The position numbers were made by a program, and so were the translations under genes. A DNA stretch of 64,000 nucleotides. Source: an uncultured Clostridium sp. (lineage in GTDB: Bacteria > Bacillota > Clostridia > TANB77 > CAG-508). Positions within the stretch are counted from its first letter, which is position 1. Each line of letters starts with the position of its first letter. Under the pieces are notes generated by a model. That model had not been told where the DNA came from, searched no databases, and saw nothing but the letters and a program-made list of their open reading frames with translations. Shown here one piece after another: positions 3,639 to 16,232 of this stretch. The stretch spans positions 29,915-93,914 of the forward strand of contig CAYJIP010000005.1 of the NCBI GenBank assembly GCA_964370265.1, given 5' to 3'.

Positions 3639-3708
3639 AATGTCTAGTTTTTCTTTTTTGATTTTGCATGTCTAGTTTTTTTGTTTTTAGTTTTTTTGTT
3701 TTTAGTTC
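3639..3708. repeat. Direct repeats ATGTCTAGTTTTT x2 and TTTTTGTTTTTAG x2
   Basis: Read directly. Abuts the stop of the minus-strand gene ending at 3702. Confidence 0.7.
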
Positions 3709-4559
3709 TTTTCTATTTTTGAAGTACTGTACATTCTACAAATATCGCAGTCGTTACATAATGTAACTTTATTTCCAAAAATTATTTGCAATGTTTGAAC
3801 AAACTCACTAATTGATTCATCTAATAGATGAATATAAATTTTTTTTGGAAGAAGATTTAACAATGTATTTAAACTGTAATCATTTGTTGAAAAAGATATA
3901 TCACTTAAAAATTTTGAATTTGAAAAATCTGAAATATTCATAATTATTTCTTTATTTTCATCTAAAAGAATTGATTCAGAAGAAGAATAGATCAGATGAA
4001 TTAGATTTACAGTAGGAGGTTGAGAAGAAATATATGATTTCAGTAATGATGTGAATTCAATATATTCTTGTGCTAATAAAAAAGAAGTTACGGCCTTTGA
4101 AAGTAGTTTATCTAATAAATCTAAATATTCTTTCAATCTGAAGTATATAAAACCATCTAAAAAAATATTTTTATCTGATATTAAATGAGAATAGAGTTTT
4201 GGGTATATTAAATCAAATTTTTGATTGAAAAAAAATACATATTCTTCTGAAAGTATATTATAGTAATTACGTATAATTTCTGATAATTCATATTTTGAAA
4301 AATAAGAATAATTTGTAGAAAGTAGAAGATGTAATAAATTATCTTCATAATTATCAATAATATATATAGATAATAATTTTGATAATAGAGATTCTACATT
4401 ATCATTGTTTAAAGATTTATCAAAATGTAGGATAATATTATCATAAGATTTAAAAGAATTAAGTGAAAAAAAGATTTTTTCAAAATCACTATTTTTTAGT
4501 TCATTAAATAAATATGTTAAAACATCTATATTATTTGTTTTAAGGCATAGTGATTTCAT
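3702..4559 (-). CDS. Hypothetical protein, possibly YtxC-like sporulation protein
   Basis: GAAAGGAG RBS. 285 aa, a size compatible with the YtxC family. C-terminal CNDCDIC cluster. Assignment is from memory only. Confidence 0.6.
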   Translation of the reverse strand: MKSLCLKTNNIDVLTYLFNELKNSDFEKIFFSLNSFKSYDNIILHFDKSLNNDNVESLLSKLLSIYIIDNYEDNLLHLLLSTNYSYFSKYELSEIIRNYYNILSEEYVFFFNQKFDLIYPKLYSHLISDKNIFLDGFIYFRLKEYLDLLDKLLSKAVTSFLLAQEYIEFTSLLKSYISSQPPTVNLIHLIYSSSESILLDENKEIIMNISDFSNSKFLSDISFSTNDYSLNTLLNLLPKKIYIHLLDESISEFVQTLQIIFGNKVTLCNDCDICRMYSTSKIEKN

Positions 4560-4673: not shown

Positions 4674-4708
4674 CAAAAAAAGTAGAAAGTTTTAAAACTT
4701 TCTACTTT
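4674..4708 (-). terminator. Intrinsic terminator of the GH57 operon
   Basis: Palindrome AGTAGAAAGTTTTAAAACTTTCTACT (4681-4706), followed on the minus strand by a T-run (plus-strand A-run 4674-4680). Confidence 0.8.
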
Positions 4709-4722
4709 ATGTATTGATTAGA

Positions 4723-6411
4723 TTAAGTAATACTCTTTATGATTTTTTCTGATTTTTTAAGTTCGGATTTTTTCTTGATAGTTTTATTTTTAATAATAGG
4801 ATTCATTATTGTGTTTACATAGTTATCACTATATAGCATATAATCAATATCAGGAAATACACAATCTTTTTTTGAAATATCTTTTAAAAAGCCTTCATCA
4901 ATAGTGTTTTCTTTAATTTGATAATATAATTTAGTAAAACGACCAATATGTTCTTTAATTCGTTTTTTAGCATAATCTACCATTGTACCATTTGTTATAA
5001 TGAATAACCAATCACTACTCTGTGCAAGTAAAAGTTCTCTTGCGCATTGATTTAATGCTTTTTTTAGTAATCCTTTAGCATTTGGAAAATTTGCGGCAAG
5101 TTCACACATTCTATCACCAGCAACATGTAAATGTTTATGTGCATAATCATTTGTAGGGTTAAGCCAAACTTCACTATAACCATTAGCACCCCAACTAGAT
5201 CTACAAGGTGATGCTACTTGCATTGTAGGATGTTTATCAATAAATTCGGAAGGTGTTATTAATTCGAAATTAGAATTATCATAATATACTTTTTTAAATA
5301 AGATATAAAGCCAATATGGACCTTCATACCACCAATGTCCATATAATTCAGCATCATAAGGACAAAAAACTAAAGGTGGAGTGTGCATATGTTGTGATAA
5401 TTGATCTATTTGTTTATTTCTACTGTCTAAAAAGTGTCCTGCTTGTCTTTCAGCAGAATCTTTAGCCCATTGTACATCATAATAATCTTTGTGTTCTGTT
5501 TTACCAGTAATTCTATGATATTTAATACCAGTATGAACTCTGACACCATTATGAGCAATATATGGTTTGATATATTCATAATCAGCTTCGTATCCAAGAT
5601 CTCTATAAAATTCCCTATAATTAAAATCGCCTGGGTATCCATCAATAGAGCTCCAAACTTGTTTAGAAGATTCGATATCACGACCGAAAGCAATAACTCC
5701 TTCAGGTGAAACGATTGCTGCAAAAGTACCATAAACAGGAGTAGGATCAGCGTATAAAATTCCGTGTGATTCTGTAATGATATAATCTATTCCAAATTCT
5801 TTTAAATATTTGTCAGATTCTGGAACATAACCACATTCTGGTAACCAAATACCTCTAGGTTTTCTACCGAAATATCTTTCATAAGTTTGAACACCAACCG
5901 CAATTTGAGCTTTAACAGTTTTTTCATTTACATACAAAATAGGGAAGTATCCATGTGTTGCTCCACATGTTATAATTTCTAGAACACCTAAATCTTGAAA
6001 ATGTTTAAATGCATTTATCAAATTACAATTATGTTCTTCTTTGAAAAATCTTAAATCTTCAGTATAACGATCAAAATAATATTTTGATAAATTATTTAGT
6101 TTTTGATCATATGCTGTTCTAATAATTTCTTTTCTAGATAATTCAATTAATTTTTTTAAGTAGTTTATATATTTTTTTTGTAAAACCTTATTGTCTAACA
6201 TAGATAATAAAGGAGGAGTCATAGACATTGTAATTCTAAAATCGACTCCTTCATCAACTAATTTTTTGAAATTTTGTAGTAATGGAATGTATGTTTCTGA
6301 AATTGCTTCATATAACCAAGACTCTTCTAAGTAATCATTACTTTCAGGGTGATGAATAAATGGAAGGTGTGCGTGAAGTACAAAACTAACATAGCCTTTT
6401 TTTTGATTCAT
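4723..6411 (-). CDS. Glycoside hydrolase family 57 protein (alpha-glucan branching-enzyme-like, DUF1957 C-terminus)
   Basis: N-terminal FVLHAHLPF motif and GH57-like core. ATG overlaps the upstream stop (TAATG). Confidence 0.8.
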   Translation of the reverse strand: MNQKKGYVSFVLHAHLPFIHHPESNDYLEESWLYEAISETYIPLLQNFKKLVDEGVDFRITMSMTPPLLSMLDNKVLQKKYINYLKKLIELSRKEIIRTAYDQKLNNLSKYYFDRYTEDLRFFKEEHNCNLINAFKHFQDLGVLEIITCGATHGYFPILYVNEKTVKAQIAVGVQTYERYFGRKPRGIWLPECGYVPESDKYLKEFGIDYIITESHGILYADPTPVYGTFAAIVSPEGVIAFGRDIESSKQVWSSIDGYPGDFNYREFYRDLGYEADYEYIKPYIAHNGVRVHTGIKYHRITGKTEHKDYYDVQWAKDSAERQAGHFLDSRNKQIDQLSQHMHTPPLVFCPYDAELYGHWWYEGPYWLYILFKKVYYDNSNFELITPSEFIDKHPTMQVASPCRSSWGANGYSEVWLNPTNDYAHKHLHVAGDRMCELAANFPNAKGLLKKALNQCARELLLAQSSDWLFIITNGTMVDYAKKRIKEHIGRFTKLYYQIKENTIDEGFLKDISKKDCVFPDIDYMLYSDNYVNTIMNPIIKNKTIKKKSELKKSEKIIKSIT

Positions 6412-7364
6412 TATTTAATCTCCTTTGTAAAAGATAGTGATGTAGCTGAAGATGGATTAGATAAATCATGAGTTCCATTTATTATAGATGTATTTTCATA
6501 AATTAAACTATATAAATCATCAACTTTAAATACATTTTTTAGATGTTCATTAGAAATTAGTGTTGATAAATTTTTATGAGATAATTTACCTGTTTTTGTA
6601 TTTTTAAAATGAACTGAATTAAATGGTGTATTAAATAAAATATGATCATTAGGAACTTCTAGTTGATTAGAAGCGTAAATCTCAACGTAATCATTTTCGG
6701 AATTAATAGGTTTTTCATAATATTTTCTACCTAATTTAACTATGTAATCACATTTGCTGTCATTAATGTTTAAATACCAACTATTAGCAAAGTCGTCTAT
6801 TTGTACTTCAAATGTATAATCATTAGATGTATTTGTTATTAATAAAACAGGGTATGTTGATTCGAAGAAAGTATATCCATAGCGATCTTTTAAAAGTTTT
6901 CTATCAGAAGTAGAAATTTCCCAATAAATAAATAAATTATTTGGAGTTTGAGCTAAAATTTTAACAACTGTTTTTTCATAAGTATATGGTAAGTCATAAT
7001 ATTCTAAAATAGAAATAGGGTTTGACTTAATTGATTTTTTAACAGTACTAACTTTTTTAGTAGTAGTTTTTTTAGTAGAAGTTTTCTTTGTTTTAGTTGT
7101 TTTCGAAGGGGTAGTAGATTTAACTGTTTTTGAAACAGTTTTTGATTTTGATGAAGCTAAACCATCGCTGTCATTTTTTTTAGTAGTTTTTGATGTTGTT
7201 TTAGTAGTTTTTTTAGAAACTGTAGTTGTAGCTTTTTTTGTTTTTTTAATATTTGTATCAACCTTTTCAGTAGGTTGTAATTTATTTTCAGCTTTTTTTG
7301 TTTTAGTTTCTTTTTTTGTAACAAGATCTTTTGAATCTTTTTCGTCTATTGTTTTTCTTGCCAT
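6411..7364 (-). CDS. DUF4912 domain protein with Lys/Thr/Ser-rich N-terminal region
   Basis: C-terminal half (YYDLPYTYEKT..LFIYWEIS) resembles DUF4912, the usual partner of clostridial GH57 genes. GGAGGAAGG RBS. Confidence 0.7.
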   Translation of the reverse strand: MARKTIDEKDSKDLVTKKETKTKKAENKLQPTEKVDTNIKKTKKATTTVSKKTTKTTSKTTKKNDSDGLASSKSKTVSKTVKSTTPSKTTKTKKTSTKKTTTKKVSTVKKSIKSNPISILEYYDLPYTYEKTVVKILAQTPNNLFIYWEISTSDRKLLKDRYGYTFFESTYPVLLITNTSNDYTFEVQIDDFANSWYLNINDSKCDYIVKLGRKYYEKPINSENDYVEIYASNQLEVPNDHILFNTPFNSVHFKNTKTGKLSHKNLSTLISNEHLKNVFKVDDLYSLIYENTSIINGTHDLSNPSSATSLSFTKEIK

Positions 7365-7572: not shown

Positions 7573-7599
7573 GTGGATAGTTTGAGAGGAGGAAAATCA

Positions 7600-8442
7600 T
7601 TGATAATAGACAAAGTAAAAAAAGTAAATAGTAAAGAAGATAGAATAAAAAATCAACAAGCATCAGATAGTATGGTTGGCAGATGGGTAAAGTGTGATAA
7701 TTGTAAAGAAATACATCATTTAGAAGAAGTACATGATAATAATAGTACATGTCCAAATTGTAATAAACATTTTAGGCTATCAGCAAGAAGAAGAATTAGA
7801 CAAATTGTTGATAAAGATACATTTGAAGAAATTGGTAAAGATATAATGACAAAAGATCCATTAGAATTTGCAGGTTATTTGAAAAAAGTAGATATATTAA
7901 AAGAAAAAACAAAAATAGATGAAGCAGTACAATGTGGAATATGCAAAATAGAAGGAAATGATGCAGTAGTAGGTGTGATGGATGGAAACTTTTTGATGGG
8001 AAGCATGGGGTCAGCAGTAGGGGAAAGAATAACACTTGCAGTGGAAAAAGCTATTGAAAAAAGAATACCATTAATAATGTTTTGTGTATCTGGTGGAGCT
8101 AGAATGCAAGAAGGAATTGTCTCTTTAATGCAAATGGCGAAAACATCAAGTGCAATAGCTAGATTGAATGAAGAAGGAATATTGTATATATCTGTGCTAA
8201 CAGATCCAACAACAGGAGGAGTAACAGCTTCGTTTGCCAGTTTAGGAGATATAATAATAGCAGAGCCGAAAGCATTAATTGGGTTTGCAGGTCCTAGAGT
8301 AATTGAGTCAACAATAAAACAAAAACTTCCAGAAGGATTTCAAAGATCGGAATTTTTATTAGAACATGGATTCATAGATAAAATAGTTGATAGAAAAGAT
8401 ATGAGAAAAACATTAGCTAAAATACTAAGATTACATAAATAA
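7600..8442 (+). CDS. accD: Acetyl-CoA carboxylase carboxyltransferase beta subunit
   Basis: Zn-ribbon CDNC..CPNC plus carboxyltransferase core. GAGAGGAGG RBS at 7585-7592 fits a TTG start at 7600 better than the track start 7573. Confidence 0.9.
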   Translation: MIIDKVKKVNSKEDRIKNQQASDSMVGRWVKCDNCKEIHHLEEVHDNNSTCPNCNKHFRLSARRRIRQIVDKDTFEEIGKDIMTKDPLEFAGYLKKVDILKEKTKIDEAVQCGICKIEGNDAVVGVMDGNFLMGSMGSAVGERITLAVEKAIEKRIPLIMFCVSGGARMQEGIVSLMQMAKTSSAIARLNEEGILYISVLTDPTTGGVTASFASLGDIIIAEPKALIGFAGPRVIESTIKQKLPEGFQRSEFLLEHGFIDKIVDRKDMRKTLAKILRLHK

Positions 8443-8466: not shown

Positions 8467-9255
8467 ATGGCTAAAAAAGAAGCATGGGACAGAGTTGTTC
8501 TAGCAAGACAGTTTGAAAGACCCAAAGCAGGAGATTATATAAAAAAAATATTTGATGAATTCATAGAATTTCATGGTGATAGAAGTTTTGGAGATGACAA
8601 AGCAATTATTGGTGGTATAGCAAAATTAGGAAAAATTCCAGTTACAGTAATTGGAGAACAAAAAGGAAAAAATGCTAAAGAAAATATCGAAGTTAATTTT
8701 GGTATGCCAAGTCCAGAGGGATATAGAAAAGCATTAAGATTAATGAAGCAAGCTGAAAAATTCGAAAGACCAATAATAACTTTTATAGATACACCAGGAG
8801 CATATCCGGGAATGGGAGCAGAGGAAAGAGGACAAGGAGAAGCTATAGCAAGAAACATAATGGAAATGTCTAATTTAAAGGTTCCAGTAATATGTGTAAT
8901 AATAGGAGAAGGATCAAGCGGGGGAGCATTAGCAATAGGTGTTGGAGATAAAATCTTAATGTTGGAAAATGCAGTATATTCAATTTTATCACCAGAAGGT
9001 TTTGCAAGTATCTTATATAAAGATTCAAGTAAAGCAAAAGATGCTGCAGCTAATATGAAAATGACAGCAGAAGATTTGAAAACGCTAGGAATAATTGATG
9101 ATATAATATTAGAACCAGAAGAAGGTGCGCAAGCAGATTTTGAAAAAGTATCTAATGATATAAAGAAATATTTACAGGAAAATATTGAAATATTAAGTAA
9201 ATTATCTAAAGAAGATTTAGTATCTAAAAGATATGAAAAATTTAGATGTATGTAA
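8467..9255 (+). CDS. accA: Acetyl-CoA carboxylase carboxyltransferase alpha subunit (short form)
   Basis: [10 protein letters not shown] and GEGGSGGALA-type motifs ([13 protein letters not shown]). AGGAGG RBS. Confidence 0.9.
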
Positions 9256-9293: not shown

Positions 9294-10073
9294 ATGAGAA
9301 AAATGATATTAAAAGATAAAACAGTAGTGATTATGGGAGTTAGAAATAAATGGAGTATAGCTTGGGGAGCAGCACAATCAGCTTATGAACAAGGGGCGAA
9401 AGTAATTTGTACTTGCGCATCAGATAGTTTTGAAAAAGTAAAAGAATTAGTAAATGAAATACCAGGGACAACAGTATATTTATGTCAAGATGTTAGTAAA
9501 GATGAAGATATAGATACATGTTTAGAAGAAATAAAAAAAGATCATGGGAAAATTGATGGTATATTACATGCAATAGCACATGCATATACTGAAGATTTAA
9601 GAAATGATTTCATATTAACTTCAAGAGATGGATTTAGCCATGCTCATGATGTTAGTGCATATTCTTTAGTTGCAATAGTAAGAATGGCAAGAGAAAAAGA
9701 TATGTTAAATCCTGGTTCAAGTATAGTTGCATATACATACTATGGTGCTGAAAAAGTTATAGAAGGATATAATATAATGGGTGTTGCAAAAGCAGCATTA
9801 GAAACATCAGTTAAATACTTGTCAAAAGATTTAGGGAAAGATGGACATAGAATAAACGCTATATCTGCAGGACCAATTAAAACTTTATCAGCAAAAGGAA
9901 TAAAAGATTTTGGAACTATATTAGATGTAGTTGAAGAAAGATCACCATTAAAAAGAAATGTAACAATAAAAGAAGTTGGAGACAGTACAGCATTCTTATT
10001 TAGTAATATGTCAGCAGCTATAACAGGTGAAACTATTCACGTAGATAATGGTTTCTCGATTGTAGGAGTATAA
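9294..10073 (+). CDS. fabI: Enoyl-[acyl-carrier-protein] reductase (NADH), FabI type
   Basis: SDR fold with YNIMGVAKAALE (Tyr-x6-Lys) and ISAGPIKT motifs. The alternative ATG at 9303 is also possible. Confidence 0.85.
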   Translation: MRKMILKDKTVVIMGVRNKWSIAWGAAQSAYEQGAKVICTCASDSFEKVKELVNEIPGTTVYLCQDVSKDEDIDTCLEEIKKDHGKIDGILHAIAHAYTEDLRNDFILTSRDGFSHAHDVSAYSLVAIVRMAREKDMLNPGSSIVAYTYYGAEKVIEGYNIMGVAKAALETSVKYLSKDLGKDGHRINAISAGPIKTLSAKGIKDFGTILDVVEERSPLKRNVTIKEVGDSTAFLFSNMSAAITGETIHVDNGFSIVGV

Positions 10074-10146
10074 TATAACCTGGAATAATAAAGAATATAT
10101 AGACTTAAATGAAAAAACAAAAGAGAAAAGAGAAAAAATTAAAAAT

Positions 10147-10184
10147 AAAAAAGAAACTGAATTTTAAAATTCAGTTTCTTTTTT
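10147..10184. terminator. Bidirectional intrinsic terminator (fabI and convergent orphan gene)
   Basis: Perfect palindrome AAGAAACTGAATTTTAAAATTCAGTTTCTT (10151-10180), flanked by an A-run and a T-run. Confidence 0.85.
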
Positions 10185-10187
10185 ATG

Positions 10188-10258
10188 CTATACACACTAT
10201 TCTATACATACTATTCTATACATACTATTCTAATCATACTATCTTAATCATACCTATT
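10188..10258. repeat. 14-nt tandem repeat, about 5 copies (CTATACATACTATT and variants)
   Basis: Units at 10188, 10202, 10216, 10230 and 10244, degenerating towards the 3' end. Confidence 0.9.
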
Positions 10259-10273
10259 GAGCTAGTAATATTA

Positions 10274-10297
10274 AACTATCAACTATCAACTATAAAC
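10274..10297. repeat. 7-nt tandem repeat AACTATC x3
   Basis: Abuts the stop codon (10299-10301) of the minus-strand orphan gene. Confidence 0.8.
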
Positions 10298-10298
10298 T

Positions 10299-10967
10299 TT
10301 AAACCCTAGTATGAATCTTACTTATTTCTGATTTTAAATTAACTAAAAAATCATTTAAATTGATGTTTTCAATTAAATCATTTTTTGTTATTTGTAAATT
10401 AAAACTACCAAAAGATTCATATAACATACAGGTATTAGTATAATCAGATAAAAAAGTTAGTAATTTAATAATTTTTTTATTAAAGCGATACTCATCTGCA
10501 TGTGTACTTAACTCTATTTTTGAAATAGATGCAAATTTGAGTGAAGATACAGTTTTCTCAGTCAAAAATTCAAGTTGTTGAGAAAAATATTTAATTAGAT
10601 AATGAATTTCGTGAATATTTTTGTATGAAGGTAAAATGCTTTGACTATTAGTAGATAGATTTAAAATTAAAATTAAATTATAGAATTTATTTTCATATTC
10701 CGCAAATTTTGAAAAAAAATCAATATCTGTGAAAAGCAAATTAAATTTATATTTAAAACCAACTTTTTCTAAAAGTGTGATTTTTACAGAATGTAAGTTT
10801 AAAGATTTAAAAGATAGAAGTGTTTGAACTTCTAAGGGTATATTTCTTTTTACATCAGTGAAATAGCATTCATACAAAGATTTAATCCAATTTTGTAGAT
10901 TTGATTCTTGAACATAAATAGTGCACTGCGAAGTAAAAGCATAGGATGACGCTTTGTATTTTTTCAT
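10299..10967 (-). CDS. Orphan hypothetical protein A (222 aa), paralog of the adjacent gene
   Basis: GAGAGG RBS before the ATG at 10967; the track start 11093 would run through the promoter and leader. No known domain recognised. Patchy similarity to 11243-11968. Confidence 0.65.
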   Translation of the reverse strand: MKKYKASSYAFTSQCTIYVQESNLQNWIKSLYECYFTDVKRNIPLEVQTLLSFKSLNLHSVKITLLEKVGFKYKFNLLFTDIDFFSKFAEYENKFYNLILILNLSTNSQSILPSYKNIHEIHYLIKYFSQQLEFLTEKTVSSLKFASISKIELSTHADEYRFNKKIIKLLTFLSDYTNTCMLYESFGSFNLQITKNDLIENINLNDFLVNLKSEISKIHTRV

Positions 10968-11011
10968 ATTTAGACCTCTCTTTAAAAAATATAGTAATAT
11001 TTTAATATATA

Positions 11012-11057
11012 AGAGGTAATGCCCCTCCGATATATCGGAAGGATAATTAAAACCTTC
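11012..11057 (-). promoter_or_regulatory. Structured 5' leader of orphan A containing the conserved palindrome CCTTCCGATATATCGGAGGG
   Basis: GC-rich island in AT-rich DNA. The palindrome at 11023-11042 overlaps hairpin GAAGG/CCTTC (11038-11057) and a weak GAGG/CCTC hairpin (11013-11027). Confidence 0.5.
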
Positions 11058-11064
11058 TTTATAT

Positions 11065-11073
11065 AATATAACA
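11065..11073 (-). promoter_or_regulatory. Extended -10 promoter element of orphan A (TGTTATATT)
   Basis: Minus strand reads TTTTGTGTTATATTATAT, closely resembling the promoter of orphan B. Confidence 0.45.
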
Positions 11074-11132
11074 CAAAATAGAAGAAAACACAAAGTATTT
11101 ACAAAAAATAGAAGTGAAAAATTGAAAAAAAT

Positions 11133-11161
11133 GTAAAAAGTAAAAAAGTAAAAAAGTAAAA
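11133..11161. repeat. Tandem GTAAAAAA repeat, about 3.5 copies
   Basis: Read directly, next to the terminator of orphan B. Confidence 0.8.
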
Positions 11162-11162
11162 T

Positions 11163-11220
11163 AAAATACAGACTCTAATTAAATGTTAATCTATAACAAC
11201 ATTAAAAGAGTCTGTATTTT
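11163..11220 (-). terminator. Intrinsic terminator of orphan B
   Basis: 14-bp arms AAAATACAGACTCT / AGAGTCTGTATTTT with a structured loop. T-rich tract follows on the minus strand. Confidence 0.75.
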
Positions 11221-11242
11221 ATGATATATATTTATAAATGTA

Positions 11243-11968
11243 TTAAACCAAATCTGGGCAAAGGGTTAGTAATTGTATATTCAGTGTAGTTAAACATTTA
11301 CAAATATTTTTTGAATTAATAAATTCTTCTATAGAAAAATTTATCTTAAATTTTTTTCTATTTTTCTTATATGAAAAACTAGAAGTTTTAATATGATGTT
11401 CAAATATTTTTAAAATTTTAATAATCATAATATATTCGGAGTATTTTTCAAAATTAATTTTTTTCAAAGTATCTAGATCACCATAAAAAAGAGTAATTTC
11501 ATCAGAGATTTTGATTTTTAAATTTGAATGATTTGGTAGGTGTTCAATATTTGATTTTGTATCTAATTCAAAATAAAAATAGGTTGATTTTGTGAATTTT
11601 AACTCTTTATATAGTTTTAAAAAACTAGACATCGTATTGAAACATAAATTGAAAATATAATAAGGTTTCCGCTTACCTATTTGAATATATTCAAAACTTT
11701 GAATTGTAGCTCCAGCTAAGCTTAAATTATGTAGTAAAGTGATAACTTTACTTAATTGTTTTTTTTCTATTTGTGCTTTTTCACTAGTTGCATTAATAGT
11801 GTTAAAATGATTTAAGCAATTTTCATACCAATAATTAATTGATTTATTTTGAGCGGTATTTCTAAATCTGCTCGGAATATTTTTTAATATAATAGAGCAA
11901 AAAGTTTTTAGTGAATAATTTAAAGTGTTATTCGGTATTTCTGGTAAAAGTATTTTGTCATTTGTCAT
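11243..11968 (-). CDS. Orphan hypothetical protein B (241 aa), paralog of the adjacent gene
   Basis: GGAGGAAC RBS. No known domain recognised. Shared patches with orphan A (e.g. TLL..SL...FNL.F..F.K; C-terminal F.I..I....N....L..L). Confidence 0.7.
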   Translation of the reverse strand: MTNDKILLPEIPNNTLNYSLKTFCSIILKNIPSRFRNTAQNKSINYWYENCLNHFNTINATSEKAQIEKKQLSKVITLLHNLSLAGATIQSFEYIQIGKRKPYYIFNLCFNTMSSFLKLYKELKFTKSTYFYFELDTKSNIEHLPNHSNLKIKISDEITLFYGDLDTLKKINFEKYSEYIMIIKILKIFEHHIKTSSFSYKKNRKKFKINFSIEEFINSKNICKCLTTLNIQLLTLCPDLV

Positions 11969-12013
11969 AAAGTTCCTCCATAAAATTAATAATGTAAATA
12001 ATAAAATAATAAT

Positions 12014-12058
12014 CCGGAAGAATTAAACCTTCCGAATTATCGAAAGGTTATATAACCT
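12014..12058 (-). promoter_or_regulatory. Structured 5' leader of orphan B containing the conserved palindrome CCTTTCGATAATTCGGAAGG
   Basis: Three overlapping hairpins: 12045-12058 (AGGTTATATAACCT), 12026-12049 (10-bp stem, one mismatch) and 12015-12034 (CGGAAG/CTTCCG). Confidence 0.5.
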
Positions 12059-12068
12059 AATTTCATAT

Positions 12069-12077
12069 ATTATATCA
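12069..12077 (-). promoter_or_regulatory. Extended -10 promoter element of orphan B (TGATATAAT)
   Basis: Minus strand reads TTGTGATATAATATATG. The -35 is weak (TTTGTT). Confidence 0.5.
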
Positions 12078-12246
12078 CAATTAACATAAAAAACAAAATG
12101 AAAATAGGCTAAATATATAATATTTTGAGTGATTAAATATATATTAATGATCTTAAATCATATTTATATATAAATTTACTTAAAAACCTTTTAAAAGTGC
12201 AGAAAATATTATACAATATAAAAAATATATATTTTAGGAGAGGGAT

Positions 12247-13944
12247 ATGAAAAAAAAATGGCAAATATCACAATGTGATAAAACAAAAGTAGATGAATTA
12301 GTGCAAAAATATAATTTTAACAAGTTATTAGCTACAATATTAGTAAATAGAAATTTAGTAGAAGAAAAAGATATAAATCAATTTTTAAAACCTACAAGAT
12401 CAGATTTTTATGACCCTTTTTTAATAACAGATATGGAAATAGCTGTTGATAGAATAATAAATGCAATAAACAAACAAGAAAAAGTAACCATATATGGAGA
12501 TTATGATGTTGATGGAATTACAAGTACAACAGTATTAAAAAGTTTCCTAAAAGACAGAGGGTTAGAGACAGATGTATATATACCAAATAGAATAGATGAA
12601 GGATATGGTCTGAATTTATCAGCAATTGATACAATTAAAGAAAATGGTACGGATTTAATAATAACTGTAGATTGTGGTATATCAGCAAATAAAGAGATTG
12701 AATATGCTAATAGTTTAGGATTAGAAACAATAGTAACAGATCACCATGAGCCAGGAGAAGAATTACCAAATGCGTATGCGATTATTGATAATAAGAGAAA
12801 AGATAGCACATATCCTTTTAGAGAACTAGCAGGTGTCGGTGTTGTATTTAAAGTAGTACAAGCAATTAGTAAAAAGATGGAATTGAGAGATGAAGAATAT
12901 CTTAAATATTTGGACATAGTTTGTGTTGGTACAATATCAGATATAGTCCCATTAGTAGATGAAAATAGAGTTATTACAAAATTAGGTATGATGTTGGTTG
13001 AAAAAACACGAAATATTGGATTAAAGTCAATACTTAAATCATCTGGGTATAATGTAATTGATTCTAACACAATATCATTTGGAGTAGCACCTAGAATAAA
13101 TGCATGTGGAAGAATGGGGAAGGCTGAAGAAGCTTTACAATTATTACTTTCAAATAATTTAGAAGAAGTAAGACAATTGACACAAAATTTAAATGATCAT
13201 AATAAAATAAGACAAGAAACAGAAAAAAATATATTTAACAGTGTAATAGAACAAATTGAAAAAGATAGATTAGATCAAAAACAAGCAATAATTGTAGCTG
13301 GAGAAGAATGGCATCATGGAGTAATTGGAATTGTAGCTTCTAAAATAACAGAAATGTATTTTAAACCTAGCATATTATTAAGTTATGAAGATAAAGAACC
13401 AGAAATAGGAAAAGGTTCAGGAAGAAGTATTCCAGGATTTGATTTACATAGTGCGTTAACAAATTGCAATGAATATATAGATAGATTTGGTGGACATTCT
13501 ATGGCAGTCGGAATCGCTGTACAAAAAGAAAAATTCGAGATGTTTAAGGAAAAATTTGAGGAAATAGCTGAAAAGGAAAAAATAAGTGAAATAACACCAA
13601 TAATTAATATAGATGATAAAATATGTTTATCAGAATTAAATAAAGAAATGATTCATAGTCTTAAATGTTTAGAACCGTTTGGAGAAGCAAATAAGACACC
13701 AATATTTGCATTTAAAAATTTAAAAATTGATTCAATAAGAGCTTTATCAGAAGGTAAGCATTTAAAACTTACATTAAAAGATGAAAATCATATAATAAAT
13801 GCAATAGGGTTTAACATTGGGCAACTTGCTAATGAATACAGGATTGGCGATAAGGTAGATATAGCAGGAATGTTAGAAGTAAATTCATTTAATAATATTG
13901 AAAGTTTACAAATTAAAATTAGAGATATAATGAAATCATATTAA
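12247..13944 (+). CDS. recJ: Single-stranded-DNA-specific exonuclease RecJ
   Basis: DHH family motifs GDYDVDGITS, DCG and VTDHHEP, plus DHHA1-like GGHSMAVG. Confidence 0.9.
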   Translation: MKKKWQISQCDKTKVDELVQKYNFNKLLATILVNRNLVEEKDINQFLKPTRSDFYDPFLITDMEIAVDRIINAINKQEKVTIYGDYDVDGITSTTVLKSFLKDRGLETDVYIPNRIDEGYGLNLSAIDTIKENGTDLIITVDCGISANKEIEYANSLGLETIVTDHHEPGEELPNAYAIIDNKRKDSTYPFRELAGVGVVFKVVQAISKKMELRDEEYLKYLDIVCVGTISDIVPLVDENRVITKLGMMLVEKTRNIGLKSILKSSGYNVIDSNTISFGVAPRINACGRMGKAEEALQLLLSNNLEEVRQLTQNLNDHNKIRQETEKNIFNSVIEQIEKDRLDQKQAIIVAGEEWHHGVIGIVASKITEMYFKPSILLSYEDKEPEIGKGSGRSIPGFDLHSALTNCNEYIDRFGGHSMAVGIAVQKEKFEMFKEKFEEIAEKEKISEITPIINIDDKICLSELNKEMIHSLKCLEPFGEANKTPIFAFKNLKIDSIRALSEGKHLKLTLKDENHIINAIGFNIGQLANEYRIGDKVDIAGMLEVNSFNNIESLQIKIRDIMKSY

Positions 13945-14030: not shown

Positions 14031-16232
14031 ATGCAGGCGAAAGAAGGAAAAAAAATAGTAATTCAAGATGTAATTGCAAAGAAAAAAGAGATAACTAGAA
14101 AAGCAGATTCAAAGGCAATAATGAAAGCATACAAATATGCAGAAATACATCATGGAGATCAATTGAGAAAATCAGGAGAACCATATATAATACATCCACT
14201 TAGTGTAGCATATATATTAGCTGAAATAGGGTTAGATGATGCATCTATCATTGCAGCATTGTTACATGATTTAGTTGAAGATACTCCAACTACACAAGCA
14301 GATGTAGAAAAAGAATTTGGTGTAGAAGTATCTCAATTAGTAGCAGGTGTTACAAAATTAGGAAGTATGCATTTTGAAACAATAGAAGAGCAACAAGTAG
14401 AAGATTATAGAAAAATGTTTTTAGCTATGGGTAAAGACATACGAGTGATATTAATAAAATTAGCAGATAGACTTCATAATATGAGAACATTAAAATTCTT
14501 AAGAAGAGATAGACAAATAGCTATAGCAAAAGAAACAATGGAATTATATGCACCACTTGCAAATAGGTTAGGTTTATACTCACTAAAATGGGAATTAGAA
14601 GATCTAGCATTTAAATATTTGCAACCAGAAGATTATCATGAGATATTAGATGGAATAAACAAAAAAAGAGAAGAAAGATTAACTTTTATTGAGAAAATAA
14701 TGGATTCAATAAGAGGTGATTTAAAAAAGCAAAGAATAGATGCAGAAGTAACAGGTAGAGCAAAACACCTATATTCAATATATAGAAAAATGAAAAGAGA
14801 TAACAAAACGATAGATCAAATTTATGATTTATTTGCACTTAGAATATTAGTTAATTCGGTTAAGGATTGTTACTCAGCTTTAGGTATAGTTCATGACTTA
14901 TATAGTCCTATGCCAGGAAGATTTAAAGACTATATAGCTGTTCCTAAACCTAATATGTATCAATCTATACACACTACATTATTAGGACAAAAAGGAACTC
15001 CATTTGAAGTTCAAATTCGTACATGGGATATGCATAGAATAGCAGAGTTTGGTATTGCTGCACATTGGGCATATAAAGAAAATAGCTATTTTGGAAAAAA
15101 ACAATTGGTAAAAGTAGAGGAAGATAAATTAGCTTGGTTAAGAGAAACTTTAGAATGGCAAAAAGATATGCAGGATCCACAAGAGTTTTTGAACACATTA
15201 AAAACAGAATTGTTTCAAGATGAAGTTTATGTGTTTACACCAAAAGGAGCAATTAAAGTTCTACCACGTAATGCAACACCGATCGATTTCGCATATTCAA
15301 TTCATGCTGAAATTGGTAACAGAATGACAGGAGCCAAGATAAATAGTAAAATGATGCCAATAATAACACCACTTGAAAATGGTGATATTGTTGAAGTAAT
15401 AACATCAGATAATGCAAAAGGTCCAAGTAGAGATTGGATTAAATTTGTTAAAAGTAGTAGTGCTAAAAATAAGATAATGGCATTTTTCAAAAAAGCAAAT
15501 AAAGAAGAAAATATAGAAAAAGGTAAAAATTTAATAGATAAAGAAATCAAAAGAATTGGATTAACACACACAGAATTATTTAAAGTACAGTATTTAAATC
15601 CAATGTTGGAAAAATATAAATATAAAACTATTGAAGAAATGTATGCATCAGTAGGTTTTGGAGCTAATTCACCAGTTAAAATAATTTCAAGAGTGTTGCA
15701 AGAGTATAGAAAAGAAAACGAAGAAATAAATATAGAAGAAAAAATAAAACAACTATCTGAAGAAAAAGTAATAAAGCCTAGACCATCAAGTTCAGGGATT
15801 ATTGTAAAAGGAATAGATAATTGTTTAGTTAAATTATCAAAATGTTGCAATCCTTTACCAGGAGATAATATAATTGGATATATAACAAAAGGTAGAGGGG
15901 TTTCAGTACATCGTACAGATTGTGCCAATATAACAGAACTATTCTCAGAAGATAATAGATTGATAGATGTAGAGTGGTTTAAAGAAAAAAATTCATCATA
16001 TATCGCAGATATAAAAATATTTTCAAATGATAGAGGTGGACTATTAGTAGACATTTTAAAAGAAATAGGTACGACAAAAGCAAAAATTCAAGGTGTAAAT
16101 ACTAAAACATCAAAAGATAAAATTGCAAACATAGAAATAACATTGGAAGTGGAAGATATTGAACAATTAAATAGAGTCATAAAATTACTGAGAAAAATCG
16201 ATAGTGTTTATGAAGTTCAGAGAAAAAGATAA
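14031..16232 (+). CDS. relA: Bifunctional (p)ppGpp synthetase/hydrolase (RelA/SpoT homolog)
   Basis: HD hydrolase motif (HHGDQ..SGEPYIIHP), synthetase motif (GRAKHLYSIYRKM), and TGS and ACT regions. Confidence 0.95.
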   Translation: MQAKEGKKIVIQDVIAKKKEITRKADSKAIMKAYKYAEIHHGDQLRKSGEPYIIHPLSVAYILAEIGLDDASIIAALLHDLVEDTPTTQADVEKEFGVEVSQLVAGVTKLGSMHFETIEEQQVEDYRKMFLAMGKDIRVILIKLADRLHNMRTLKFLRRDRQIAIAKETMELYAPLANRLGLYSLKWELEDLAFKYLQPEDYHEILDGINKKREERLTFIEKIMDSIRGDLKKQRIDAEVTGRAKHLYSIYRKMKRDNKTIDQIYDLFALRILVNSVKDCYSALGIVHDLYSPMPGRFKDYIAVPKPNMYQSIHTTLLGQKGTPFEVQIRTWDMHRIAEFGIAAHWAYKENSYFGKKQLVKVEEDKLAWLRETLEWQKDMQDPQEFLNTLKTELFQDEVYVFTPKGAIKVLPRNATPIDFAYSIHAEIGNRMTGAKINSKMMPIITPLENGDIVEVITSDNAKGPSRDWIKFVKSSSAKNKIMAFFKKANKEENIEKGKNLIDKEIKRIGLTHTELFKVQYLNPMLEKYKYKTIEEMYASVGFGANSPVKIISRVLQEYRKENEEINIEEKIKQLSEEKVIKPRPSSSGIIVKGIDNCLVKLSKCCNPLPGDNIIGYITKGRGVSVHRTDCANITELFSEDNRLIDVEWFKEKNSSYIADIKIFSNDRGGLLVDILKEIGTTKAKIQGVNTKTSKDKIANIEITLEVEDIEQLNRVIKLLRKIDSVYEVQRKR

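Follow-up and report, generated by a model that had tools for sequence, protein, structure and literature searches.

Riboregulators that sequester the Shine-Dalgarno (SD) sequence in the 5′UTR, together with terminator/antiterminator attenuators, form a general class of regulators. In Gram-positive 5′UTRs, SD-like sequences known as STAB-SD have been described which stabilise the mRNA (PMC4113751). Regarding gene content, phage morons are additions between conserved genes which are transcribed as units of their own (PMC3594210), and hot spots of horizontal transfer are located between core genes and show a rapid gene turnover (PMC5635113). Here we analysed a locus of an uncultured gut Clostridium, placed between fabI and recJ, in a window of 64 kb (the whole stretch of DNA that was analysed).

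Two minus-strand genes between fabI and recJ

An earlier note on this DNA had described two minus-strand ORFs of 222 and 241 aa between plus-strand housekeeping operons; both are present and their length is beyond chance. They are located between fabI (9294-10073, plus strand) and recJ (12247-13944, plus strand), and the flanks are the chromosomal housekeeping operons accD-accA-fabI and recJ-relA. The predicted product of orfA (11243..11968, minus strand) is a soluble, basic protein of 241 aa (pI 9.4), and that of orfB (10299..10967, minus strand) is a soluble, basic protein of 222 aa (pI 8.9); neither has a detectable homolog. The SD of orfA, GGAGG (11975..11979, minus strand), is found 6 nt 5′ of the ATG. 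orfB begins with ATG and has the SD AGAGAGG, and its SD region AAAGAGAGG (10975..10983, minus strand) is predicted to pair with a CU-box at 11011-11016. The strong terminator proposed for the upstream gene, orfA, was confirmed as a long hairpin with a U-rich tail (11149..11234, minus strand; -25.2 kcal/mol, z -6.8). On the other side, a perfect palindrome of 21+21 nt (10145..10186, 100% complementary) would be a bidirectional intrinsic terminator common to fabI (plus) and orfB (minus), and it forms the left edge of the slot. In the 3′UTR of orfB, between the stop codon and this terminator, the 14-nt unit TATTCTATACATAC is repeated about 5 times in tandem (10184..10253), and this array was not found in any of the fetched loci of relatives. 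Taken together, each ORF has its own extended -10 promoter, a 5′UTR of about 92 nt, an SD and a terminator, so that the claim of two separate promoter-leader-ORF-terminator units with related cis-elements is borne out at the sequence level.

The stop-free run extends over 291 codons in the frame of orfB and 241 in that of orfA, while no run in 2000 shuffled versions of the slot (21.5% GC) exceeds 146. With the codon usage of the host, the annotated frame ranks best of six. The coding score was weak, with -0.06 and -0.11 bits per codon for the two ORFs against +0.5 to +0.7 for fabI and recJ, and GC1 was 0.245 and 0.288, compared with mostly 0.35-0.50 in the other ORFs of the window. No internal repeats were found within either ORF. 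Because the length of the ORFs is far beyond chance, no other frame of the six scores better than the annotated one and each ORF has its SD, promoter and terminator, we read orfA and orfB from their sequence as real genes, which are ordinary lineage-specific accessory genes. Singleton ORFans are common in variable gaps, and singleton orphan genes are very common in metagenome-assembled genomes.

The profile and database searches came back empty, in agreement with the earlier observation that neither protein has a recognisable domain. No family or domain was matched in Pfam, NCBIfam, PADLOC, PHROGs or the PDB sequences; the PADLOC defence-system models gave no family at E<=10, and the Pfam family PF12784 (PDDEXK_2) was not matched even at E<=10. 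In a word-indexed search of 5.8 billion clusters orfA and orfB each retrieved itself alone, and the same result was obtained for orfA in an exhaustive HMMER scan of 1.84 billion representatives (the scan covered orfA, and the word-indexed search is the one that covered orfB). Nothing was retrieved by tblastn of orfB against phages and plasmids, nor by searches of viral loci with both proteins, and exact-protein look-ups for other strains, with orfA and FabI, gave no record. The AlphaFold2 single-sequence models were poor (pLDDT 42.6 for orfA and 45.5 for orfB); in orfB, moderate confidence was reached by residues 11-95 alone, modelled as an alpha/beta unit. A Foldseek comparison with PDB and BFVD yielded nothing at E<1e-3 for orfB and nothing significant for orfA, and the generic matches to ACT, PII and ferredoxin-like folds, with a best E of 0.02-0.2, were set aside.

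The fabI-recJ junction in related genomes

The slot is approximately 2 kb long, from the fabI terminator (about 10186) to the conserved recJ promoter block (about 12165). This block, the recJ promoter/5′ region (12165..12246, plus strand), with AAAACCTTTAAAA...TGTTATACAAT...AGGAGAGG kept across species, forms the right edge, and both edges, the fabI terminator side and the recJ promoter block, are conserved across relatives. The GC content of the slot is 0.19-0.23 compared with 0.27-0.33 in the flanks. As marks of insertion, no integrase, tRNA or flanking repeats were found at the slot; it contains no regulator gene, and no phage or mobile-element gene adjoins the orfA/orfB pair in this genome.

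For the comparison, 80 loci were fetched around recJ homologs, and fabI adjoins recJ in 16 of them. The loci are from different species, with RecJ 66-75% identical, and not from different strains. In these 16 relatives the gap measures 100-1400 bp; it is empty (no ORF >=50 aa) in 9, with 100-610 bp, and carries cargo in the other 7. Three of the latter (L008, L015 and L016) have a PDDEXK_2 protein, PD-(D/E)XK transposase-like, which matches PF12784 with 1e-46 in L008 and 1e-51 in L016; two (L009 and L010) have truncated copies, one (L074) has a coiled-coil protein and one (L001) a singleton orphan, P0003, of 267 aa. The nearest upstream neighbours of recJ belong to 26 unrelated clusters. The inserted position between housekeeping operons is consistent with these empty gaps and different cargoes. 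The proteins and the leader of orfA and orfB are absent from the relatives, and the conservation of pair and leader in related genomes, which had been put forward as a check, was not found. That homologs, pair and leader are all missing elsewhere is also one half of what the earlier note had named as refuting its reading, the other half being a lack of transcription.

The closest relative (L001, RecJ 75% identical) has a terminator-like hairpin 3′ of fabI at the matching place. Its orphan P0003 resembles orfA and orfB in occupying the slot in minus orientation as a singleton, with a promoter that abuts the recJ promoter block and an end beside the hairpin that follows fabI; it differs from them in being a single ORF with another leader and no detectable similarity to either protein. 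It also has a significant internal two-domain duplication. We considered this orphan as a positional ortholog on the basis of a FxFNLxF likeness seen by eye. The pair-profile comparisons of A+B to C, A+C to B and B+C to A all failed, with A and B being orfA and orfB and C the orphan, and a profile of its own two repeats against orfA and orfB failed too. The likeness was rejected as chance because the motif is not kept between the two internal repeats of P0003.

A duplicated promoter-leader module and its predicted folds

A module of about 85 nt is present in duplicate, once in each cassette; in order, it comprises the -35 region, the -10, the hairpin of 20 nt and the CU-box. The extended -10 promoters are TTGTGATATAAT (12080-12069, orfA) and TTGTGTTATATT (11076-11065, orfB). 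Promoter A (12069..12100, minus strand) combines the extended -10 TGTGATATAAT with a conserved TTTGT -35-like region, and from the spacing its start is predicted at about 12062-12063; promoter B (11065..11097, minus strand) combines the extended -10 TGTGTTATATT with the same TTTGT region, with a start predicted at about 11058-11059. The 20-nt palindrome CCTTYCGATAWWTCGGARGG is located at 12028-12047 and 11023-11042 and at no other site in the window (chance expectation 0.00), and the distance from its centre to the ATG is 69 nt in orfA and 65 nt in orfB. The DNA upstream of both genes gives a colinear alignment of 72 nt that starts in the -35 region and includes the hairpin, with a score of 47 compared with 22 +/- 3.4 (maximum 37) in shuffles, equivalent to a Smith-Waterman z=7.4, and in this way the related promoters and the palindromic leader 65-69 nt before the start codon, both noticed earlier, were confirmed.

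A nhmmer search with the module gave E=7e-18 and 2e-15 at the two known sites and none further in 1.41 Mb; with two copies alone, a multicopy MITE-like element was ruled out. It was also discarded as a widespread motif: the 20-mer has 2 viral and 68 metagenome matches, none of them with the context of promoter, CU-box and SD, the viral ones being inside apparent coding sequence and many of the metagenome ones being a hairpin followed by a T-run. Rfam covariance models gave no match in either leader at E<=10 and none at the gathering score across the window. The Spo0A 0A box, the LexA/Cheo box, CRP/FNR, Fur and PurR were compared by eye as operator motifs, and none fits both copies.

Both leaders are predicted to fold better than shuffles, with z about -3.2. 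In leader A the palindrome can form hairpin P2, CCUUUCGAUAAUUCGGAAGG (12028..12047, minus strand; -12.6 kcal/mol), whose 5′ arm is overlapped by P1, a perfect 14-nt palindrome, AGGUUAUAUAACCU (12045..12058, minus strand), paired in the minimum-free-energy structure. The alternative hairpin P3 (12008..12041, minus strand) joins the 3′ arm of the palindrome and the CU-box UUCUUCCGG by 14 pairs and is followed by AUUUUAUUAU, which makes it terminator-like. The two states of leader A are nearly isoenergetic, with -23.3 kcal/mol for P1 plus terminator-like P3 and -23.1 for P2 plus the helix between CU-box and SD. Leader B contains the equivalent P2, CCUUCCGAUAUAUCGGAGGG (11023..11042, minus strand), as a predicted fold, and the CU-box CCUCUU (11011..11016, minus strand), whose sequence is complementary to both the SD and the 3′ hairpin arm. 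The minimum-free-energy structure of leader B is P2 plus the CU-box:SD helix, and the decoy state costs +4 kcal/mol. The terminator-like hairpin of leader A has 14 pairs and overlaps a 10-pair alternative; its counterpart in leader B is weak, with 5 pairs and a U-tract of poor quality. The RNAalifold consensus comprises a hairpin of 8 pairs, 2 of them with one-sided changes that still pair as G-U, and a CU-box:SD helix of 5 pairs, with 1 compensatory and 1 one-sided change; since there are two leader copies (n=2), the covariation evidence is minimal. It is noted that in leader A both predicted states look OFF, by terminator or by masked SD, which is awkward for a simple switch.

Origin of the cassettes and comparison with known systems

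A key aspect is whether the proteins are paralogs, as the term weakly paralogous in the earlier note implied. The comparison of orfA with orfB gave E=0.84 by BLASTP, E=0.36 by hhalign and z=1.9 by Smith-Waterman, where 11/300 shuffles reach the score, and other scoring schemes gave a shuffle p of about 0.01-0.1. With an unrelated ABC-ATPase ORF orfB scores 73, above the 69 obtained with orfA, and no DNA similarity was detected inside the coding regions. The hhalign alignment is colinear over 187 columns with 27% identity, and within it a predicted beta-hairpin plus helix around a FNLxF motif is found at a matching offset in both AlphaFold models, whose confidence is too poor for a comparison of folds (pLDDT 42.6 and 45.5). 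By these sequence comparisons protein paralogy is statistically not demonstrated and the term was not upheld. Because of this, the duplication of the whole unit is something that we infer from the duplicated leader, and not a result. Regarding the proposal of an old duplication under shared control, the related cis-elements stand; the duplication of the whole unit is a parsimonious reading with proteins of no significant similarity.

The best explanation, to which we give about even credence, would be a moron-like pair of cassettes in an insertion hot spot, duplicated and co-regulated by an RNA leader that masks the SD. The fabI-recJ slot would be a site of insertion and turnover in this clade of uncultured gut Clostridia, and would hold here two stand-alone minus-strand cassettes of moron type, each with a putative sigma-A extended -10 promoter, a 5′UTR of about 92 nt, SD, ORF and terminator. 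One whole cassette may have been duplicated in tandem, and an old tandem duplication is probably the origin of the two. The coding parts would have diverged past detection, and promoter and leader would have been held by purifying selection. The leader would act as RNA. The CU-box (UUCUUCC in A, CCUCUU in B), placed 5-7 nt 3′ of the hairpin, would have two possible partners: the true SD, located about 50 nt further 3′ and masked by this pairing, or the hairpin's 3′ arm, which is SD-like (GGAAGG in A, GGAGGGG in B). The outcome would be a two-state switch of SD, anti-SD and decoy SD, in which the decoy state of leader A also resembles an intrinsic terminator; the choice between the states may be set by a protein, by temperature or by the ribosome. 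Taking into account the location, the low GC, the rapid turnover and the selfish cargo at this site in relatives, the likeliest class for both proteins is that of accessory functions with roots in mobile elements or in phage-host conflict.

The same module can be explained if it alone, with its approximately 85 nt, had been duplicated or recruited twice and unrelated ORFs had arrived separately, the proteins then not being paralogs. The lack of significant protein similarity and of DNA similarity past the module, the failure of the pair-profile tests and the unrelated cargo that the slot takes in relatives are in line with this. However, orfA and orfB are in tandem, co-oriented, similar in length (241 and 222 aa) and in their odd composition, with a nearly equal distance from hairpin to ATG; the 187-column alignment and the matching FNLxF element point in the same direction, and there is no third copy to suggest that the module moves alone, so we regard this origin as unlikely, if worth keeping in view. 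Still further from our expectation, and very improbable, is that orfA and orfB are relics in decay, or open frames that have no function and whose protein product is not under selection. Their singleton status, very low GC1, weak coding score and low-confidence structure predictions would fit, against which stand the 241 and 291 stop-free codons (maximum 146 in 2000 shuffles), the annotated frame as best of six, the intact SDs, promoters and terminators and the leader kept between both copies.

Regarding the palindrome, its 20 bp could be a DNA operator with 9-2-9 inverted half-sites near CCTTCCGAT, with its centre at about +25 relative to the transcription start, where a dimeric factor encoded elsewhere would repress both promoters by roadblock. 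Both copies lie at equal distance from the -10 and are nearly perfect inverted repeats, GC-rich inside DNA of 21% GC, and the minimum-free-energy fold of leader A does not include the palindrome as its own hairpin. An operator would nevertheless leave the conserved CU-box and its SD complementarity in both copies unexplained; both asymmetries of the stem arms retain G-U pairing on the sense strand, the slot has no regulator gene and the 64-kb window no further copy of the site, and we consider it a doubtful, yet serious, contender. The hairpin with its SD-like arm might otherwise be a 5′ stabiliser of the mRNA, as a 5′ stem-loop or as a STAB-SD-type 30S site that blocks RNase J1, giving high constitutive expression with no switch. 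A stable hairpin, one arm of which resembles GGAGG, at a distance of about 17 nt from the predicted 5′ end, and the STAB-SD precedent in Gram-positive 5′UTRs (PMC4113751), would agree with it; yet the SD-like sequence is buried within the hairpin, and neither a conserved CU-box that masks the SD nor the terminator-like alternative of leader A is a feature of known stabilisers, which makes this role rather improbable. It is also quite improbable, somewhat beyond that, that the leader represents a very small new class of cis-acting RNA switch, composed of a decoy-SD hairpin, an anti-SD box and the true SD, which would co-control anciently duplicated genes whose rapid diversification an arms race (phage defence or immunity, for instance) would have driven. 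Such diversification would explain that the coding similarity was lost while the 85-nt control module was kept.

If the moron-like pair with its SD-masking leader is the correct reading, the locus would be a clean, small example of how gaps between core genes of reduced gut Clostridia gather self-contained expression cassettes, of a control region that outlasts all recognisable similarity of the genes under its control, and of a compact leader design with decoy SD and anti-SD. Its rating in the earlier note as the best candidate for an undescribed module was overstated, as nothing indicates a specific function; the locus opens up no question of long standing, the proteins offer no handle on their function and the host is uncultured.

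By comparison with known systems, integron cassettes were discarded, given that the palindromes sit in 5′UTRs after promoters, no attC R″/R′ core (GTTRRRY) was seen by eye and the slot has no integrase ORF. As in the STAB-SD and 5′ stem-loop stabilisers of Gram-positive bacteria, a purine tract resembling an SD and a stable stem-loop are located in the leaders far 5′ of the true SD, whereas here the tract is base-paired and an extra anti-SD box is conserved. The leaders differ from the SD-sequestering riboregulators and attenuators in showing no Rfam family, ligand pocket, leader peptide or known protein-binding motif, and in existing as two copies alone; in prediction they are alike in their mutually exclusive helices, CU-rich anti-SD and SD-like decoy arm and in the terminator-like hairpin of leader A. 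In the case of phage morons, orfA and orfB are flanked by fabI and recJ and not by phage genes, and have no similarity to phage sequences or PHROGs, yet judged from sequence they share with morons an own promoter and terminator, the addition between conserved genes and a GC content below that of the neighbours. Finally, although species and not strains were compared and the slot has no integrase, tRNA or flanking repeats, it resembles the hot spots of horizontal transfer in being an interval between conserved genes whose content varies by species, from empty to PDDEXK_2, coiled-coil and orphan cargo.

Gene content of the fabI-recJ slot

The window is very AT-rich (25.7% GC), and the gap between fabI (9294-10073, plus strand) and recJ (12247-13944, plus strand), here called the slot, lies between plus-strand genes that also comprise accD (7573-8442), accA (8467-9255) and relA (14031-16232). 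It holds two minus-strand ORFs, orfA (11243-11968, 241 aa) and orfB (10299-10967, 222 aa), the latter starting at an ATG preceded by AAAGAGAGG. A longer form of orfB in a mechanical ORF list, starting at TTG 11093, is implausible because this codon is upstream of the gene's own -10 box. The stop-free run of 291 codons compares with a longest run of 146 in 2000 shuffles of the slot, and the lengths of orfA and orfB far exceed chance for DNA of 21.5% GC. By host codon usage the annotated frame ranks best of six, with a score well under those of fabI and recJ. Upstream of accD there are a YtxC-like gene (3702-4559), a GH57 branching-enzyme-like gene (4723-6411) and a DUF4912 gene (6411-7364), all on the minus strand. 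YtxC is a sporulation-associated family, and its presence would hint that the organism may be spore-forming.

The two proteins are soluble and basic (pI 9.4 for orfA and 8.9 for orfB), rich in K, I, L, N, S and F. Neither had a match in Pfam, NCBIfam, PADLOC, PHROGs or PDB sequences, nor in phage, plasmid and viral-contig searches. Among 5.8 billion clusters each matched itself alone, as a single-sequence cluster from one contig, and when orfA was scanned exhaustively with HMMER against 1.84 billion representatives, only the query was recovered. GC1 is unusually low (0.245 in orfA and 0.288 in orfB); since Pfam families are present in all four other low-GC1 ORFs of the window that were put through Pfam, AT-richness alone does not explain why orfA and orfB have no family. 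Single-sequence AlphaFold2 models were poor (pLDDT 42.6 for orfA and 45.5 for orfB), residues 11-95 of orfB, an alpha/beta unit, being the sole moderately confident part, and Foldseek with these models gave nothing under E=1e-3.

It had been proposed in the earlier note that the two proteins are weak paralogs, and this was not demonstrated (BLASTP E=0.84). Their local alignment (z=1.9) was equalled in 11 out of 300 shuffles, and p ranged from 0.01 to 0.1 when the matrix and gap costs were varied. With orfA, orfB scored lower than it did with an ABC-ATPase ORF from the window to which it is unrelated. The hhalign alignment was colinear over 187 columns with 27% identity, yet its E was 0.36. Soft support for paralogy comes from the tandem arrangement in the same orientation, the similar length and composition, the nearly equal spacing from hairpin to ATG, and a beta-hairpin plus helix around the FNLxF motif at equal alignment offset, both AlphaFold models being of low confidence.

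The duplicated control module and its predicted leader RNA

Each ORF appears, at the level of sequence, to form a unit of promoter, leader, ORF and terminator, as had been described before. The predicted extended -10 promoters are TTGTGATATAAT for orfA (12080-12069, minus strand) and TTGTGTTATATT for orfB (11076-11065, minus strand). The putative orfA terminator (11149-11234, minus strand) is a strong hairpin with a U-rich tail (-25.2 kcal/mol, z -6.8), and that of orfB, a perfect 42-nt palindrome (10145-10186), would also terminate fabI. Several repeats accompany these elements. The orfB 3'UTR, from stop codon to terminator, is filled at 10184-10253 by about 5 tandem copies of the 14-nt unit TATTCTATACATAC, which was not found in any fetched locus; a 7-nt repeat, TAAACTA/CAACTAT, overlaps the orfB stop codon with about 4.7 copies (10272-10304); and between the orfA terminator and the orfB promoter about 4.5 minus-strand copies of the T-rich 8-nt repeat ACTTTTTT (11127-11161) may be an UP-element or a curved DNA stretch.

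The region preceding the two ORFs is a real, non-random duplication. The 20-nt palindrome CCTTYCGATAWWTCGGARGG occurs within the 64 kb only at 12028-12047 and 11023-11042 (chance expectation 0.00). A colinear alignment of the sequences upstream of the two ORFs extends over 72 nt, from a TTTGT element resembling a -35 past the -10 as far as the hairpin's 3' arm, with a Smith-Waterman score of 47 against 22 +/- 3.4 for shuffles (maximum 37). Since the best score in comparisons with 40 further upstream regions from the window was 43, the promoter part by itself is unexceptional and the hairpin part is exceptional. Using nhmmer with a profile of the two sequences, exactly these two copies were retrieved from 1.41 Mb (window plus fetched loci); Rfam had no match in either leader or anywhere in the window. 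No DNA similarity between the units was seen in the spacer before the SD or in the coding regions. Duplication of the whole cassette would be the most economical origin of the two leaders. The old duplication under shared control that had been suggested is plausible, though unproven for the coding parts.

Sequences identical or close to the 20-mer CCTTCCGATAAATCGGAAGG are also present in unrelated metagenome contigs (L083-L150) of 24% to 63% GC, in many cases as a hairpin with a T-run behind it. In one group of soil or gut contigs (L109, L112, L113, L122, L124, L134 and L141) it lies within a conserved, structured-looking region.

The predicted 5'UTRs of about 92 nt fold better than shuffles (z ~ -3.2). 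In both leaders the palindrome hairpin, P2, has on its 5' side a pyrimidine arm (CCUUYC) and on its 3' side an arm resembling an SD (GGAAGG/GGAGGGG), a pyrimidine stretch or CU-box (UUCUUCC/CCUCUU) comes 5-7 nt past it, and the true SD is about 50 nt beyond the CU-box. The RNAalifold consensus of the two leaders is exactly P2 plus a CU-box:SD helix. Two of the 8 P2 pairs differ between leaders by one-sided changes that retain G-U pairing, and of the 5 pairs of the CU-box:SD helix one has a compensatory UA/CG change and one a one-sided change. This structure is the minimum-free-energy fold of leader B (-22.8 kcal/mol). In leader A it (-23.1) is isoenergetic with an alternative (-23.3) in which the SD-like arm pairs with the CU-box, forming a terminator-like hairpin of 14 pairs (12008-12041), and the small palindrome P1, which overlaps the 5' arm of P2, occupies that arm.

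Taking these folds together, we infer that the leader could act as a two-state switch, with a decoy SD and an anti-SD, common to orfA and orfB and controlling both genes. The proposal draws on two leader sequences only, the decoy state costs +4 kcal/mol in leader B, and both states of leader A look OFF. The palindrome could also be read as a DNA operator, given its 9-2-9 inverted half-sites at about +25; we regard this as rather unlikely, and it leaves the conserved CU-box unexplained. Of all the details of the locus, this proposed decoy-SD/anti-SD leader is the one of most interest.

The slot in relatives

The comparison covered 80 loci, each around a RecJ homolog of 66-75% identity, in MAGs of uncultured gut Clostridia and in Clostridium sp. 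CAG:343. recJ and relA were together in every locus reaching far enough, and the gene upstream of recJ belonged to 26 unrelated clusters. In about 20 relatives (among them L003, L005, L013, L020-L024, L029, L030, L036, L038, L039, L045 and L048) the best relA tblastn segment begins 700-1000 nt past the recJ end, versus 30-90 nt in the window and many loci, which could be due to an insertion separating the two genes or to a divergent RelA N-terminus.

fabI adjoins recJ in 16 of the 80 loci, with a gap of 100-1400 bp. Nine of these gaps (100-610 bp) lack an ORF of at least 50 aa. Three carry a full PD-(D/E)XK transposase-like gene (L008 ~4758-5642, minus; L015 ~4693-5577, minus; L016 ~4960-5892, plus), for which PF12784 matched at 1e-46 and 1e-51 in the two tested, and two carry truncated copies (L009, L010); the two orientations and the truncations suggest that such genes have inserted here, and decayed, more than once. 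One gap has a coiled-coil protein. In the closest relative, L001, there is a 267-aa singleton orphan (4979-5782, minus strand) in which a domain of about 100 aa is duplicated in tandem, significantly so by self-alignment (score 86, z=7.8). Its short leader has an AAUCCU element that could pair with its own SD; no relation of this protein to orfA or orfB was detectable. Conservation of the pair and leader elsewhere, a check raised in the earlier note, was not observed: orfA, orfB and the leader occur in no relative.

The recJ promoter and 5' region (12165-12246, AAAACCTTTAAAA...TGTTATACAAT...AGGAGAGG) is conserved in sequence in L001, L002, L003, L011, L014 and L032, and behind fabI both the window and L001 have a terminator-like hairpin; together these bound the slot at about 10186-12165. 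The conservation of the recJ 5' region is unusually strong for an intergenic stretch, the RecJ proteins of these species being only about 70-75% identical.

Comparison with known systems

The observation made in the earlier note is largely correct, and orfA and orfB are putative accessory cassettes at a hot spot, orphans specific to their lineage. Such cases are common, and these two give no hint of a specific function. Hot spots of transfer and turnover between core genes have been described (PMC5635113), and the pattern of the slot fits them. Phage morons each come with a promoter and a terminator of their own and with deviant GC (PMC3594210); unlike them the orfA and orfB cassettes stand without phage context, and they would resemble them in carrying their own predicted promoter and terminator and in their deviant GC.
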